Source: a bacterium
Lineage (GTDB): Bacteria; UBA8248
DNA: 64,000 bases
Assembly: GCA_965213685.1 (NCBI GenBank)
Contig: CBDBZY010000045.1
Span: 1 to 64,000 of the forward strand
Direction of reading: 5' to 3'
In this document: positions 34,938-39,798 of the stretch, piece by piece
How positions within the stretch are numbered: position 1 is the first letter of the stretch
How the letters are laid out: the number at the start of each line of letters is the position of its first letter
Notes under the pieces: generated by a model
What the model was told of the DNA's origin: nothing
Database searches by the model: none
Seen by the model: only the letters and a program-made list of their open reading frames with translations
Position numbers and translations under genes: made by a program

Positions 34938-34996
34938 CCCGTTGGCCGGGTGGGAGCGAGGAAGAAGGGATTCGGAGGAACGGGAAGGGTATTCTC

Positions 34997-35956
34997 ATGG
35001 CATTGGGCGCCCGAGGCCGTCCGCCCCAGATTTTGAGGGCGCTGCCCTCGCTGATTGATCGCATCGGGGGGACGAGCCTGGTTCAGCTGCAGCGCCTGCC
35101 CCGCTCCTCCGGCGCGCGCGTGTTCGCCAAGCTGGAGCAATACAACCCCGGCGGAAGCGTCAAGGATCGCATCGCGCTCAGCATGGTGCTGGACGCCGAG
35201 CGGCGTGGACTCCTCCAGCCCGGGGGCACTATCGTCGAGCCTACGAGCGGCAACACGGGCATCGGCTTGGCGCTCATCGGCGCCATTCGCGGCTATCGAA
35301 CGATCATCGTGCTGAGCAGGAGCATGAGCCACGAGCGGCACTCCCTGCTCAAGGGCTACGGGGCGGAGGTGGTCTTCAGCTCCTGCGAGGGCGGCATGTA
35401 CGGCTCGGTGCTGAAGGCGGAGTCCCTTCTGGCGGACAATCCGGATTACTTCATGCCCCAGCAGTTCAACAACCCGGCCAATCCGGAGATTCACCGCAGG
35501 ACGACGGCGCGGGAGATTTTGCGGGACATGGGGGCGGAATCGATAGACGCCTTCGTGGCGGGCGTGGGGACGGGAGGCACCATCACCGGCGTGGGGGAGG
35601 TTTTGAAGCAAAGAAGGCCCGAAACCCGCATCGTCGGGGTGGAGCCGGCGGCTTCTCCCGTCCTCTCCGGCGGGGAGCCGGGCCCGCACCAGATACAGGG
35701 GATCGGCGCCGGCTTCATCCCCGAGGTTTTGAACCGCTCGATCATGGACGAGGTGGTCCAGGTAACCGATGCGGACGCCTACGACATGAGCAAGGCACTG
35801 AGCCGGGAGGAGGGCATGGCCGCGGGCATTTCGGCCGGCGCGGCCGTTTGCGCGGCCCTGCGCGTGGCCGGGCGGATGGGTCCGCAGGAGAACGTGGTGG
35901 TCGTCATCCCCGATGGATGGGAGAGGTATTATAGTCTGGAGCGGCAGTTTCATTAG
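34997..35956 (+). CDS. cysK: Cysteine synthase A
   Basis: NPGGSVKDRIA, EPTSGNTG, QQFNNPANP, GVGTGGT, HQIQGIGAG. Confidence 0.92.
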   Translation: MALGARGRPPQILRALPSLIDRIGGTSLVQLQRLPRSSGARVFAKLEQYNPGGSVKDRIALSMVLDAERRGLLQPGGTIVEPTSGNTGIGLALIGAIRGYRTIIVLSRSMSHERHSLLKGYGAEVVFSSCEGGMYGSVLKAESLLADNPDYFMPQQFNNPANPEIHRRTTAREILRDMGAESIDAFVAGVGTGGTITGVGEVLKQRRPETRIVGVEPAASPVLSGGEPGPHQIQGIGAGFIPEVLNRSIMDEVVQVTDADAYDMSKALSREEGMAAGISAGAAVCAALRVAGRMGPQENVVVVIPDGWERYYSLERQFH

Positions 35957-36022
35957 AATGAGAGACGCGAAATCGCATTTCGCCACCCCCCGAAGAGGGA
36001 TTTTCAAGATCAGGAGGCAGAG

Positions 36023-36331
36023 ATGGCGGTAACGGTTCATATCCCGACACCCTTGCAGGAGTTCACCCAGCAGCAGGACGCCGTGGAGGTCGAGGGCGAA
36101 AACGTCCGGGAAGTGCTCGCAACCCTCGACGAGCGGTTCACGGGCATTCGCCAGCGCCTCTATGACGAGGAGGGCAGGCTGCGCCGCTTTGTGAACATCT
36201 ATGTGAACCAGGAGGATATTCGCTTCCTGCAAGGCGAGGGGACGGAGTTGAGCGATGGCGACGAGCTCTCCATCGTGCCGGCCATCGCGGGGGGTGCGCA
36301 TCGCTCGCGTCCGGAATCCGCATCCCTTTGA
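36023..36331 (+). CDS. MoaD/ThiS/CysO-like ubiquitin-fold sulfur carrier with 11-aa extension after GG
   Basis: VHIPTPL, FVNIYVNQEDIR, IVPAIAGG-AHRSRPESASL. Confidence 0.9.
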   Translation: MAVTVHIPTPLQEFTQQQDAVEVEGENVREVLATLDERFTGIRQRLYDEEGRLRRFVNIYVNQEDIRFLQGEGTELSDGDELSIVPAIAGGAHRSRPESASL

Positions 36332-36352
36332 TGATGAGAGGAGCGCCTCTCC

Positions 36353-37009
36353 ATGAGTCTGGGGGAGGAGCAGATACAGCGCTACAGTCGGCACATCCTT
36401 CTGCCCGGAGTGGGAGGGATCGGGCAGGAGCGTCTGCTGGCGTCGTCCGCCCTCATCGCGTTTTCGGCGAGGGAGGAGGGCGCCGCCGTCGTGGCCCTGA
36501 CGTATCTGGCCGCGGCGGGCTTGGGCCGCATCGGGTGGTGTCCGCTGGAAGGCGCCCGCGGGGGAGGCGGACTTCGGGACGAATCGCCGTTTCTCTCGTT
36601 TCTGGGCGCCTGTGCGGAAGATGGCGTCCGAAGCCTCAATCCGGATGCGGAGCTGATTCCCTGTCGCCCGGACGAGGCGGCGGCGGAGGTTTTTGACGCC
36701 CTCGTCTGGCTGGGCGACGCATCGGGTTTCGCGGGGCGCAAGCCTGCGGCCAGGATCACCCTGCGGGGCGCCGCCGGCGATGAGGCGGGCGAGATTCTCG
36801 AGGGGAGCGGCGGCCCCTTCGGGGATTTGGCCTCCCGGAGCCGGGGCGAAGGCGCGCCGATGGCGGCGACCCAGGGCGTCCTCGGTGCGTGGCTGGCGGC
36901 CAGGTGCTTGCGGCGTCTGTTGGATGGGGAGGATACGGTGGGGTCGACTGCGCAGGCCCGTTTTGATCTTTCGCGTGGCTTCCTGGAAGCGAATGCGAAT
37001 GTTTCCTGA
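36353..37009 (+). CDS. Degenerate ThiF/MoeB-family (E1-like) protein
   Basis: RYSRHILLPGVGGIGQERL and YLAAAGLGRIG present; GxGGxG loop, SNLxRQ and CxxC motifs absent. Confidence 0.8.
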   Translation: MSLGEEQIQRYSRHILLPGVGGIGQERLLASSALIAFSAREEGAAVVALTYLAAAGLGRIGWCPLEGARGGGGLRDESPFLSFLGACAEDGVRSLNPDAELIPCRPDEAAAEVFDALVWLGDASGFAGRKPAARITLRGAAGDEAGEILEGSGGPFGDLASRSRGEGAPMAATQGVLGAWLAARCLRRLLDGEDTVGSTAQARFDLSRGFLEANANVS

Positions 37010-37044
37010 AAATGTTTCTGCGTCACAGAACGAGGGCCGGACCG

Positions 37045-37992
37045 ATGGTCGAACCAGCGGTGGAGAACCCGAGGAGCGCGTTTAGGGCCATAGAGGATTC
37101 CGCAATCATCCGGTGCATCGGCAAGACCCCCCTGTTGCGGATCCGTGCGTTCGAGAGCGAATTTCCAGAAGTGGAGGTCTATGCCAAGGCGGAGTGGTTC
37201 AATCCGGGCGGATCGGTGAAGGACAGGCCCGCACTCTATATGATGAAGGAGGGGCTGGAATCGGGAGCGTTGCGGCCGGGCAAGATTCTTCTCGATTCCA
37301 CCAGCGGGAATACGGGCATCGCCTACGCCATGATCGGAGCGGCGCTGGGGATTCCCGTCCGCCTAGTTCTTCCGGCGAACGCGAGTGAGGAGCGCAAGGC
37401 GACGTTGCGGGCCTATGGCGCCGACGTCGTGTATTCGGACCCGATGGAGGGCTCCGACGGCGCGCAGCGGCTCGCGGCGGCTATGTTCCGGGAGGAGCCG
37501 GAGAAGTATTTCCTGCCGTGCCAGTATGATAACCCGGCCAACCCGCTCGCCCATGTGGAAACCACGGCGGTGGAGATTCTGGAGCAAACCGACGGGCGCG
37601 TGGCGCATTTCGTCGCCGGCCTGGGCACGACGGGCACCCTGGTGGGCACGGGGCGCGGCTTGAAGATGCGAAAGGCGGATGTCGCGGTGCATGCGGTCAT
37701 GCCGTCCGACTCCTTTCACGGCCTCGAGGGGATGAAGCACATTCCCACGGCCATTCGCCCGGGGATTTACGACGAGGGCGTGCACGACCGGCTGATTCTG
37801 GCGGGCACCGAGGAGAGCTATCACCTCGCCGAGAGGGTCGCGCGGGAGGAGGGCGTCTTTATCGGCCACTCCGCCGGCGCCGCGCTCGTGGGCGTCCGCG
37901 AGGTGGCGAAGCGGGTAGGGGAGGGCGTCGTCGTCACCGTGTTTCCCGACGGCGGAGACCGGTATTTGAGCGAGGCGCGCCAGGGAGGCTGA
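37045..37992 (+). CDS. cysM: Cysteine synthase B / CysM-like PLP enzyme
   Basis: NPGGSVKDRPA, STSGNTG, QYDNPANP, GLGTTGT, HGLEGMKH. Confidence 0.85.
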   Translation: MVEPAVENPRSAFRAIEDSAIIRCIGKTPLLRIRAFESEFPEVEVYAKAEWFNPGGSVKDRPALYMMKEGLESGALRPGKILLDSTSGNTGIAYAMIGAALGIPVRLVLPANASEERKATLRAYGADVVYSDPMEGSDGAQRLAAAMFREEPEKYFLPCQYDNPANPLAHVETTAVEILEQTDGRVAHFVAGLGTTGTLVGTGRGLKMRKADVAVHAVMPSDSFHGLEGMKHIPTAIRPGIYDEGVHDRLILAGTEESYHLAERVAREEGVFIGHSAGAALVGVREVAKRVGEGVVVTVFPDGGDRYLSEARQGG

Positions 37993-37997
37993 ATGAT

Positions 37998-38495
37998 TTG
38001 CGATTGAACCGCGAACAGGTGGAGGCGATGTACCGGCACGCGCGCGCGGCCTATCCCGATGAGTGTTGCGGCCTCATCACCGGCCCGCCGCCTGCGGAGG
38101 ATGGGGGGCCGGACGCGCCCCTGCGCCTTTTCCCCTGCAGGAACGTCCAGGACGAGATGCGCGCGAAAGACCCGCAGGCCTATCCCCGAACGGGGCGGCG
38201 CGCCTTTTTGATCGATCCGTTCGAATTCGAGCGCATCCTCCGGGAGGCGGAGGAGGCGGGCGAGGTGATTCGCGGGATATTCCACAGCCACCCGGATGAG
38301 GACGCCTATTTCTCCCGGGAGGACAAGGATGCGGCGCTTCCCTTCGGGGACATCCCCTCGTTTCCGCATGCCGGACACATCGTCATGAGCGTGCGCGGAG
38401 GGGTGGTTTGCGGCGAGAAGGTGTTTTTTTGGGACGCGGGGCAGAAAGATTTCGTCCCGGGCGACCTGGAGGTGACGGAGGAAGCGGGCGGGTGA
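37998..38495 (+). CDS. JAB/MPN+ (Mec-like) metalloprotease
   Basis: YPDECCG and FHSHPDEDAYFSRED JAMM motif. Confidence 0.92.
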   Translation: MRLNREQVEAMYRHARAAYPDECCGLITGPPPAEDGGPDAPLRLFPCRNVQDEMRAKDPQAYPRTGRRAFLIDPFEFERILREAEEAGEVIRGIFHSHPDEDAYFSREDKDAALPFGDIPSFPHAGHIVMSVRGGVVCGEKVFFWDAGQKDFVPGDLEVTEEAGG

Positions 38496-39343
38496 GCCGC
38501 GAGAGCGACCTCGCGCGTTCGCCGGATGAGGAGCAGGCCGCGCCCGCGGGCCCGTCCGGGGGCCGCGTGTCCGATGCGCAGTCTCTCGCGCGTTCATCGG
38601 CCCTTGTCCTGGGAGTCGGCGGCATCGGCTCGCCCGCGGCGCTGGCGCTCGCGGCATCCGGCGTGGGGCGGATCGGCGTGGTCGATCATGACAGGGTGGA
38701 CCTCGGCAACCTGGCGCGTCAGATTCTCCACCGGACGGAGGACTTGGGCCGCGAGAAGGTGGATTCGGGCGCGGATTCCATCCGCAGGCTCTCCGCCCGG
38801 ACGGCGGTGGACGCCATTCCCCGCAGGCTCACGCCCGCGAACGCCGCCGAAATCATCGCCCCCTACGATGTCGTCGTGGACGGCAGCGACAACCTGCTCT
38901 CGAAGCTCGCCCTCAACGACGCCTGCGCCGCATCCGGCAAGCCCTGGGTGATGGGGGGCGTGCTGCGGTTTTTCGGGCAGGCGATGACCATTCTGCCGGG
39001 CAGGAGCGCATGTCTGCGGTGCCTGGTGGGCGAGGAGGGCGCGGGGGCGCGGGGGCTGGACTGCGGGGATGCGGGCGTCTTCGGCGCCGTGGCCGGTTTT
39101 GTGGGCATGGCGCAGGCGGCCGATGCGATCCGGGTTCTTCTGGGGCTGGAGCCGGCCTGGTCGAACAGGTTGATGACGGCTGATTTTTGGAAAAATGCCT
39201 TCGGCGGCCTGCGGGTGGCGCGGAATGCGGATTGTCCCGCCTGCGCGCTTGCGAGGCGCCGGAGCGTGGAGGCCCCGATGGTCCGGGAAGCGTCCGGGGA
39301 AGGGATGCTGCAGGGACGCCTCATGGGAGGATGCCGCCGATGA
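38492..39343 (+). CDS. ThiF/MoeB-family adenylyltransferase (E1-like), lacking N-terminal RYSR helix
   Basis: GVGGIG, DHDRVDLGNLARQ, DGSDN, CLRC, LDCGDAGV, CPAC; GTG start overlaps previous stop. Confidence 0.9.
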   Translation: MSRESDLARSPDEEQAAPAGPSGGRVSDAQSLARSSALVLGVGGIGSPAALALAASGVGRIGVVDHDRVDLGNLARQILHRTEDLGREKVDSGADSIRRLSARTAVDAIPRRLTPANAAEIIAPYDVVVDGSDNLLSKLALNDACAASGKPWVMGGVLRFFGQAMTILPGRSACLRCLVGEEGAGARGLDCGDAGVFGAVAGFVGMAQAADAIRVLLGLEPAWSNRLMTADFWKNAFGGLRVARNADCPACALARRRSVEAPMVREASGEGMLQGRLMGGCRR

Positions 39344-39798
39344 AGATATCGACCAAGGGACGATACGCCGTGCTCGCCATGATAGAGCTGGCGCGGCACT
39401 CGCAAACGCACCCGGTTCCCTTGCCCCAGATAGCCGGCAAGCTGGAAATCAGCCAGCACTACCTGGAGCAGCTGTTCGTGAAGATGCGCCGGGCCTCGCT
39501 GGTGCGCAGCACGAGGGGGCCGGGAGGCGGCTACATCCTGGCGCGGCCCCCCTCCCGAATCAACATGCGCGACGTTCTGTTCGCGGTGGAGGAAACCGTC
39601 CAGCCGGTGGATTGCGGAGAGGCGCCGCCTTCCGTTCCGTGCCCGAACATCCGGGCGTGCGGAAGCCGCATTCTGTGGAAGAGGCTCGAGGATGCGATAG
39701 ACAAGACGTTGCGGGAGACCACGCTGGAGGAGTTGAGCGCGCGCCCGGCCGGGGAGGGAGAGGGCGTCCGCCTGCCGAGTTTCCAGGTGAGCATCTAG
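39340..39798 (+). CDS. Rrf2-family regulator (IscR-like, three Cys)
   Basis: MKISTKGRYAV, YLEQLF, RGPGGGY, C-x8-C-x5-C. Confidence 0.92.
   Translation: MKISTKGRYAVLAMIELARHSQTHPVPLPQIAGKLEISQHYLEQLFVKMRRASLVRSTRGPGGGYILARPPSRINMRDVLFAVEETVQPVDCGEAPPSVPCPNIRACGSRILWKRLEDAIDKTLRETTLEELSARPAGEGEGVRLPSFQVSI

Follow-up and report, generated by a model that had tools for sequence, protein, structure and literature searches.

Two complementary ThiF-fold proteins as the probable inactive and active subunits of an E1-like enzyme in a bacterial sulfur-carrier operon

Background

The E1-like enzymes of bacterial sulfur-carrier pathways are described as homodimers in passages of a 2023 preprint (PMC10557695) and of a 2025 review (PMC12355090), and parts of reviews from 2024 and 2025 describe MoeB and ThiF likewise. 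In those passages of PMC10557695 and PMC12355090 an unequal pair of an inactive and an active subunit is a eukaryotic hallmark that appears in bacteria only as the fused protein BilD. Here we analyze a stretch of bacterial DNA of 64,000 nucleotides (nt; contig CBDBZY010000045.1, positions 1 to 64,000), called the window, in which two genes of one putative cysteine-synthesis operon, named psiE1 and E1, encode an apparently inactive ThiF-fold protein and a ThiF/MoeB-type adenylyltransferase, respectively. We consider it fairly probable, judging from their sequences, that the two proteins form an asymmetric two-gene enzyme, psiE1 being its inactive and E1 its active subunit, and that this enzyme adenylates the C-terminal glycine of CysO, a ThiS/MoaD-fold sulfur carrier encoded next to them.

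In Escherichia coli MoeB-MoaD and ThiF-ThiS and in fungal Uba4-Urm1 (PDB 1JW9, 1ZUD and 6YUC) the adenylating enzyme has the same fold and catalytic motifs as the E1 of the window, and its substrate is, as here, a ThiS-fold carrier ending in GG. MoeB, ThiF and Uba4 are homodimers with two active sites, whereas here the N-terminal helix and the active site are found on two gene products, one of which is predicted to be unable to bind ATP. Uba4 and MoeZ also have a rhodanese domain, which the E1 described here lacks. According to part of PMC7527816, Arg18 of Uba4, in the N-terminal helix of the partner protomer, completes the nucleotide site. A section of PMC12355090 places Arg57 of UBA1 at the gamma-phosphate site together with Arg515 and describes the same interaction in MoeB; from its position near the N-terminus, Arg57 would belong to the inactive domain.

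The eukaryotic pairs SAE1-SAE2 (UBA2) and NAE1 (APPBP1)-UBA3 likewise consist of two adenylation-fold polypeptides, only one of them active, and the inactive one keeps the N-terminal arginine segment. On the other hand, eukaryotic heterodimeric E1s have a catalytic-cysteine domain, a ubiquitin-fold domain and E2/E3 partners, none of which is found here, and their product is a protein conjugate, whereas here it would presumably be a thiocarboxylate for cysteine synthesis. The likeness of psiE1 to the eukaryotic inactive subunits is a structural match, and no specific kinship is claimed.

The nearest bacterial precedent is the fused BilD of the BilABCD antiviral system. Passages of PMC10557695 describe its inactive and active adenylation domains as a pseudo-dimer with one active site, to which the inactive domain contributes one arginine, Arg9. 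In BilD both domains are fused in one chain, which also carries a mobile Cys domain and acts with an E2 in protein conjugation and defence; the two genes of the window lie 1.5 kb apart in a metabolic operon, with cysM and mec between them. No fused or longer form of psiE1-E1 was seen among 39 longer relatives, all of which are ordinary MoeB-rhodanese or ThiS-ThiF proteins matching via the N-terminus, which is weak evidence of absence. The same parts list as in the window is found in the CysO/CysM/Mec system of Mycobacterium tuberculosis with MoeZ and in operon type 4c of Iyer et al. 2006; according to passages of PMC1779556, one rhodanese-fused protein serves as the E1 there. The window differs from these in that its E1 has neither rhodanese nor helix and is accompanied by a dead paralogue, and in that cysK provides a second synthase. 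The full-text literature searched gave no account of a bacterial sulfur-carrier E1 encoded by two genes.

Results and discussion

The N-terminal helix and the catalytic motifs lie on two gene products

The two genes and the motifs on which the comparison turns are the following.

36353..37009, + strand: psiE1, apparently catalytically dead ThiF-fold paralogue of 218 amino acids (aa), proposed inactive E1 subunit (no Pfam match; hhalign, AlphaFold2 (AF2) and Foldseek)
36380..36394, + strand: RYSRH motif of psiE1, residues 10-14, with R13 as the candidate trans-acting arginine (aligns to ERYSRQ of Uba4)
38492..39343, + strand: E1, ThiF/MoeB-type adenylyltransferase of 283 aa (Pfam ThiF, 3.1e-62, 210.3 bits against a cut-off of 28.1)
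38612..38629, + strand: GVGGIG nucleotide-binding loop of E1, residues 41-46 (motif reading)
39062..39076, + strand: CGDAG crossover-loop cysteine of E1, C191, invariant (motif reading and alignment)

The psiE1 protein has the RYSRH motif and a C-terminal helix, QGVLGAWLAARCLRRLL (residues 173-189). After strand beta1, at the site expected for GxGGxG, it reads SAREEG, and neither its sequence nor the alignment of 21 orthologues contains NLxRQ, DxxDN, CxxC or the crossover Cys. A GVGGIG at residues 19-24 was considered as a nucleotide loop and rejected, being aligned to a PEVGxxGQ stretch that precedes beta1. No Pfam family matched psiE1 at E <= 0.01, and the NCBIfam MoeB/UbaA models match only residues 2-62, far under their cut-offs. 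Comparison by hhalign of the profile of the 21 psiE1 orthologues with the E1 family gave a probability of 88.4% (E 2.8e-6, 125 columns), with residues 26-153 of psiE1 aligned to residues 30-173 of E1. This span is a whole paralogous domain and no N-terminal fragment, and the idea of one E1 gene split by insertion of cysM-mec was therefore discarded. The psiE1 profile also aligns to residues 3-212 of MoeB and to residues 4-71 of C. thermophilum Uba4, with ERYSRQ opposite RYSRH.

The AF2 model of psiE1 has a predicted local distance difference test score (pLDDT) of 70 and a predicted template modelling score (pTM) of 0.74, with no confident structure beyond residue 191. A Foldseek search of the PDB with this model gave 102 matches at E <= 0.001, led by Uba4 (1.5e-8, TM score 0.63), MoeB (5.5e-8) and ThiF (8.3e-8); the inactive subunits SAE1 (1y8q_A, 2.5e-5) and APPBP1 (3dbr_E, 5.4e-5) were also matched. 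By its model psiE1 is thus a ThiF-fold (adenylation-domain) protein, and by its sequence it is homologous to the E1 family but cannot be an adenylating enzyme.

The E1 protein carries GVGGIG (residues 41-46), NLARQ (73-77), DGSDN (130-134), CLRC (174-177), CGDAG (191-195) and CPAC (248-251). Residues G41, G43, G46, R76, Q77, K89, D133, C174, C177, C191, C248 and C251 are invariant in 21 E1 sequences, and E1 reads as a full ThiF-family enzyme with all in-cis catalytic motifs. Its Pfam ThiF match spans profile positions 14-238 only. When E1 and 20 orthologues were compared as a profile with E. coli ThiF and MoeB, the alignments began at residue 22 of ThiF and residue 26 of MoeB, indicating that E1 lacks the RYxRQ helix. 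In none of the 21 orthologues was RYxRQ found in the open frame upstream of the glycine loop; the N-terminal tails are variable, of 10-40 residues, and in the AF2 model of E1 residues 1-24 have pLDDT <50, form no helix and are predicted to be disordered. E1 may start at GTG 38492, which forms a GTGA overlap with the mec stop, or at GTG 38567; several orthologues begin at the position equal to GTG 38567, which may be the real start. The helix is missing whichever of the two holds. ThiF is the sole domain found by Pfam in the 283 aa, with no rhodanese domain, and E1 has neither a catalytic-cysteine domain nor a ubiquitin-fold domain.

Of the two adenylation-fold polypeptides encoded at the locus, E1 alone has the ATP-binding residues. 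An E1 homodimer would have no partner-helix arginine, whereas a psiE1:E1 pair would have one complete site. These results bear out the original prediction in its starting points: both open reading frames lie on the + strand where it had placed them, each motif that it had listed as present or absent in them was found so, and its description of psiE1 as E1-like agrees with the adenylation fold indicated by hhalign and by AF2/Foldseek.

psiE1 is conserved under purifying selection

In the protein database psiE1 has >50 clusters that equal it in length and share 55-81% identity, and others share 43-46%. In the phylum, psiE1 is present in 31 of 51 genomes, including 20 of the 22 other genomes of the genus. 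The frame has no stop or frameshift in any of 21 orthologues from five genera, with identity down to 39%, and a ribosome-binding site, GAGAGGAG, lies upstream of the psiE1 ATG. Of the 63 family members whose sequence covers the RYSRH motif, 62 keep it; the exception reads RYSHH.

Selection was estimated as the median pairwise ratio of non-synonymous to synonymous substitution rates (dN/dS) within the genus (16 sequences, 120 pairs). The ratio was 0.34 for the whole of psiE1 (range 0.19-0.48 over all 120 pairs), 0.14 for residues 1-62 and 0.31 for the C-terminal part, compared to 0.24 for E1, 0.12 for Mec and 0.09 for CysO. On this comparison psiE1 is under purifying selection and is no pseudogene; the constraint is real but looser than that on its neighbours. 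In a strain variant seen in contigs from other runs, psiE1 has lost 6 nt without a change of frame, and 13 nt are inserted in the spacer that precedes it.

psiE1 and E1 are kept and lost together

The reciprocal pattern, with the helix on psiE1 and the catalytic motifs on E1, was found in 21 of 21 orthologous pairs from five genera and, being present in every aligned pair, is more than would be expected by chance. All 20 loci compared, which come from five genera, show the seven genes of the operon in one order, with rrf2 as the last of the block.

The mec loci of twelve genomes with no psiE1 match, or in one case (G009) a short one only, were inspected. Ten of them keep cysK-cysO-(cysM)-mec-rrf2 and lack both psiE1 and E1. 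A short contig (L070) lacks E1, and the position of psiE1 falls outside the contig. In G009, which belongs to another family, both genes are present, split over two contigs. Presence of psiE1 and E1 was concordant in all 32 loci compared (22 with both, 10 with neither). The two genomes of the window's genus that lost both genes still carry remnants: the final 22-29 codons of psiE1 remain between cysO and cysM (L060, 3912-3998; L061, 6484-6566), and one of the two also has about 15 codons from the E1 N-terminus following mec (L061, 4963-5007). Read from these remnants, psiE1 and E1 were removed by two separate deletions in one lineage.

On a tree of CysK, CysM and Mec, presence of psiE1 and of E1 each needs 5 changes, and the independent contrasts were all concordant, 3 on well-supported branches and 5 on the best tree. 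The original prediction had expected the reciprocal motif loss to be conserved and to co-occur in related genomes, and had named neutral decay of psiE1 as the outcome that would speak against it; the pattern holds in the 21 pairs from five genera, presence is concordant in the 32 loci with joint loss at least three times, and an intact psiE1 in 21 of 21 orthologues together with a dN/dS of 0.34 speaks against neutral decay.

The psiE1 orthologue of G009 (L072, 45-230; L069, 2598-2969) retains a GLGGVG loop and two CxxC pairs, while the E1 of that genome already lacks RYxRQ. From its sequence the G009 psiE1 looks like an earlier, less decayed stage; if this is true, the series would represent steps of degeneration, with the zinc site still present in G009 and gone in the window's genus.

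Each of 4 runs yielded a contig of about 4.8-4.9 kb that joins the end of cysO to the start of cysM with 177 other letters instead of 906 (window 36291 to 37198). This joint is a weak hint of co-occurring relatives that lack psiE1; its matching sides are only 25 nt long.

Proposed mechanism

If psiE1 and E1 act as one enzyme, Mec would first trim the residues after GG on CysO, and E1 would bind ATP-Mg and CysO through its own motifs. psiE1 would pair with E1 via the usual ThiF dimer interface, so that its RYSRH helix, probably through R13, would reach the gamma-phosphate of the ATP bound by E1. In MoeB and Uba4 homodimers this task falls to the partner protomer, and in eukaryotic E1s and BilD to the inactive domain. 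The E. coli MoeB residue equivalent to the Uba4 partner arginine is Arg14. The resulting psiE1:E1 heterodimer would have one active site. CysO-AMP would then be converted to the thiocarboxylate, in which step the invariant crossover Cys191 of E1 may take part, and CysM would make cysteine from CysO-COSH. With no rhodanese domain in E1, the sulfur must be supplied by a donor outside the psiE1/E1 enzyme. The physical heterodimer, its obligate nature as put forward in the original prediction, the donation of an arginine into the E1 ATP site, the single active site and every chemical step of this scheme are inferred.

Alternative explanations

Several observations weigh against this scheme. E1 retains two in-cis positive residues, Arg76 and Lys89, and, according to part of PMC2888440, mutagenesis showed that 'at least one' positive residue is needed close to the beta/gamma phosphates; E1 alone might therefore work, or have some activity, without psiE1. 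The candidate finger arginine, R13, is not invariant, as the RYSHH cluster contains 22 member sequences. psiE1 evolves faster than its neighbours, with a within-genus identity of 55-68% compared to 82-90% for CysK/CysM; the dN/dS of its middle part is 0.43, and in the strain variant 9 of the 11 listed psiE1 substitutions are residue-changing (40 of 67 differences shown). The tree used for the contrasts was built from operon genes and not from species markers, and a sign test with 3 contrasts gives p = 0.25, the floor for three. The co-loss also fits both genes being dispensable whenever a housekeeping MoeB can serve CysO, since the genome has a full-length rhodanese-MoeB elsewhere. This protein (L001, 1402-2637, contig C3 of the window's genome, G000) has 411 aa, an N-terminal region that is rhodanese-like by reading of its sequence, a full ThiF domain and its own RYSRH.

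E1 could accordingly be a self-sufficient homodimer that does without a trans arginine, with psiE1 an accessory that has another part in the pathway: it might regulate E1, for instance, or serve as a scaffold or chaperone that passes CysO or CysO-AMP on to CysM or the sulfur donor. The complete set of in-cis catalytic residues in E1 and the 'at least one' requirement (PMC2888440, in part) are compatible with this, as are the rank of psiE1 as the fastest-evolving gene of the block and the co-loss, which would also be expected if psiE1 acted only on the product of E1. We nevertheless think such an accessory role unlikely, since the best-conserved part of psiE1 is the very helix that is missing from E1 (dN/dS 0.14; RYSRH in 62/63), and since psiE1 ends soon after the C-terminal helix, with no CxxC and without a C-terminal subdomain such as active enzymes have. 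The C-terminal subdomain of active E1-like enzymes binds the carrier. Action of psiE1 apart from E1, as a homodimer or with another partner such as the housekeeping rhodanese-MoeB, its place in the operon reflecting shared regulation only, appears improbable: the genome does encode a full-length rhodanese-ThiF protein, but this has its own helix and would not need psiE1, and the 32/32 concordance and the separate deletion of both genes in the same lineages tie psiE1 to E1. That psiE1 is a decaying duplicate, a pseudogene open by chance, has in its favour the loss of all catalytic motifs, the lack of a Pfam match and the relatively high share of residue-changing differences in the strain variant. 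It is very improbable in view of a frame open in 21/21 orthologues of five genera down to 39% identity, dN/dS of 0.19-0.48 in all 120 pairs, a strain indel that is in frame and a ribosome-binding site; true losses, moreover, reduced psiE1 to a fragment of about 25-29 codons. The pairing of psiE1 with E1 as inactive and active subunits is thus the reading which we prefer.

The operon and its other genes

The feature block examined, 34994-39798 on the + strand, consists of seven close-packed genes, cysK, cysO, psiE1, cysM, mec, E1 and rrf2, with gaps of 2-66 nt or overlaps of 4-7 nt. Family assignments were made by Pfam and NCBIfam profile scans. In addition to psiE1 and E1 the block contains the following genes.

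34994..35956, + strand: cysK-type cysteine synthase, a pyridoxal phosphate (PLP) enzyme (Pfam PALP 1.9e-79; TIGR01139 cysK, 403.9 bits, above the cut-off of 350.95)
36023..36331, + strand: cysO, ThiS/MoaD-fold sulfur carrier (Pfam ThiS 1.2e-18; MoaD family TIGR01687, 50.8 bits against a cut-off of 49.5)
37012..37992, + strand: cysM-type cysteine synthase, presumed user of CysO-thiocarboxylate (Pfam PALP 1.9e-65)
37998..38495, + strand: mec, JAMM/MPN metalloprotease that would trim the CysO tail (Pfam Prok-JAB 2.6e-19)
39337..39798, + strand: rrf2, Rrf2-family regulator (IscR/CymR-like), overlapping the E1 stop (Pfam Rrf2 6.2e-37)

A ThiS-fold carrier with a C-terminal GG, a JAMM peptidase and a cysteine synthase are thus found together in one operon, and by its gene content the block is the parts list of thiocarboxylate-dependent cysteine synthesis. 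The best NCBIfam model for cysM is TIGR01138 cysM, at 336 bits, under its cut-off of 394.2. No E2-like gene was found among the seven genes by the Pfam and NCBIfam scans. A promoter and terminator scan of the stretch gave sites no more numerous than in shuffled sequence.

The CysO of the window ends in ...AIAGG followed by an 11-residue tail, compared to 1-2 residues after GG in 20 relatives; either more trimming by Mec is needed or the stop codon has moved. An apparent CysO-psiE1 fusion at one locus (L056) was rejected, as a stop codon separates the two genes. At one of the ten loci without psiE1 and E1 (L065, 5473-5646; genome G038) cysM is reduced to a remnant matching residues 254-326, and cysK, cysO, mec and rrf2 remain.

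A wider family of degenerate E1-like proteins

The psiE1 profile was searched against 1.84 billion representatives, and motifs were counted in the 83 best matches of at least 190 aa. Both NLxRQ and DxxDN are absent from 52 of these 83 best full-length cluster representatives; 50 of the 52 keep RYxR[QH] and 32 keep two CxxC pairs. These counts suggest, at the level of sequence motifs, that dead E1 copies are widespread. That asymmetric two-gene E1s are common in bacterial sulfur-carrier pathways, and not a curiosity of one lineage, is a tentative extension which we regard as possible but do not favour. Should each dead copy pair with a helix-less active E1, the inactive/active architecture would have arisen, perhaps repeatedly, in bacterial sulfur metabolism before conjugation machinery.

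A conserved two-gene version would show that a ThiF homodimer has been subfunctionalised in bacteria into a catalytic and a helper subunit, and that no conjugation cascade is required for E1 asymmetry. It would also give a simple study system, with one carrier and one reaction. In annotation, psiE1, with no Pfam match, would be called hypothetical, and E1 would be called MoeB or ThiF, although it may be inactive alone.

Among the proteins retrieved, a large and diverse set (P0165-P0300) of 200-260 aa ThiF-like proteins has the RYSRQ helix and usually the zinc cysteines and lacks the ATP-binding motifs. Atlas look-alikes of the wider dead-E1 set are labelled Binatota and Myxococcota, labels that serve as leads only. 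When metagenome contigs were examined with the wider-family alignment, 79 loci were ordinary MoeB-type, and three open reading frames passed the motif filter, none of them a dead E1.

The window's genome also has, on contig C51 (78703-80005), short ThiF-family matches in different frames with internal TGA/TAG stops, which suggests a broken ThiF-like gene. This assembly (G000) is 7.97 Mb long in 71 contigs, compared to 2.9-4.6 Mb in the 22 other genomes of the genus, and its contamination is given as 3.7%.

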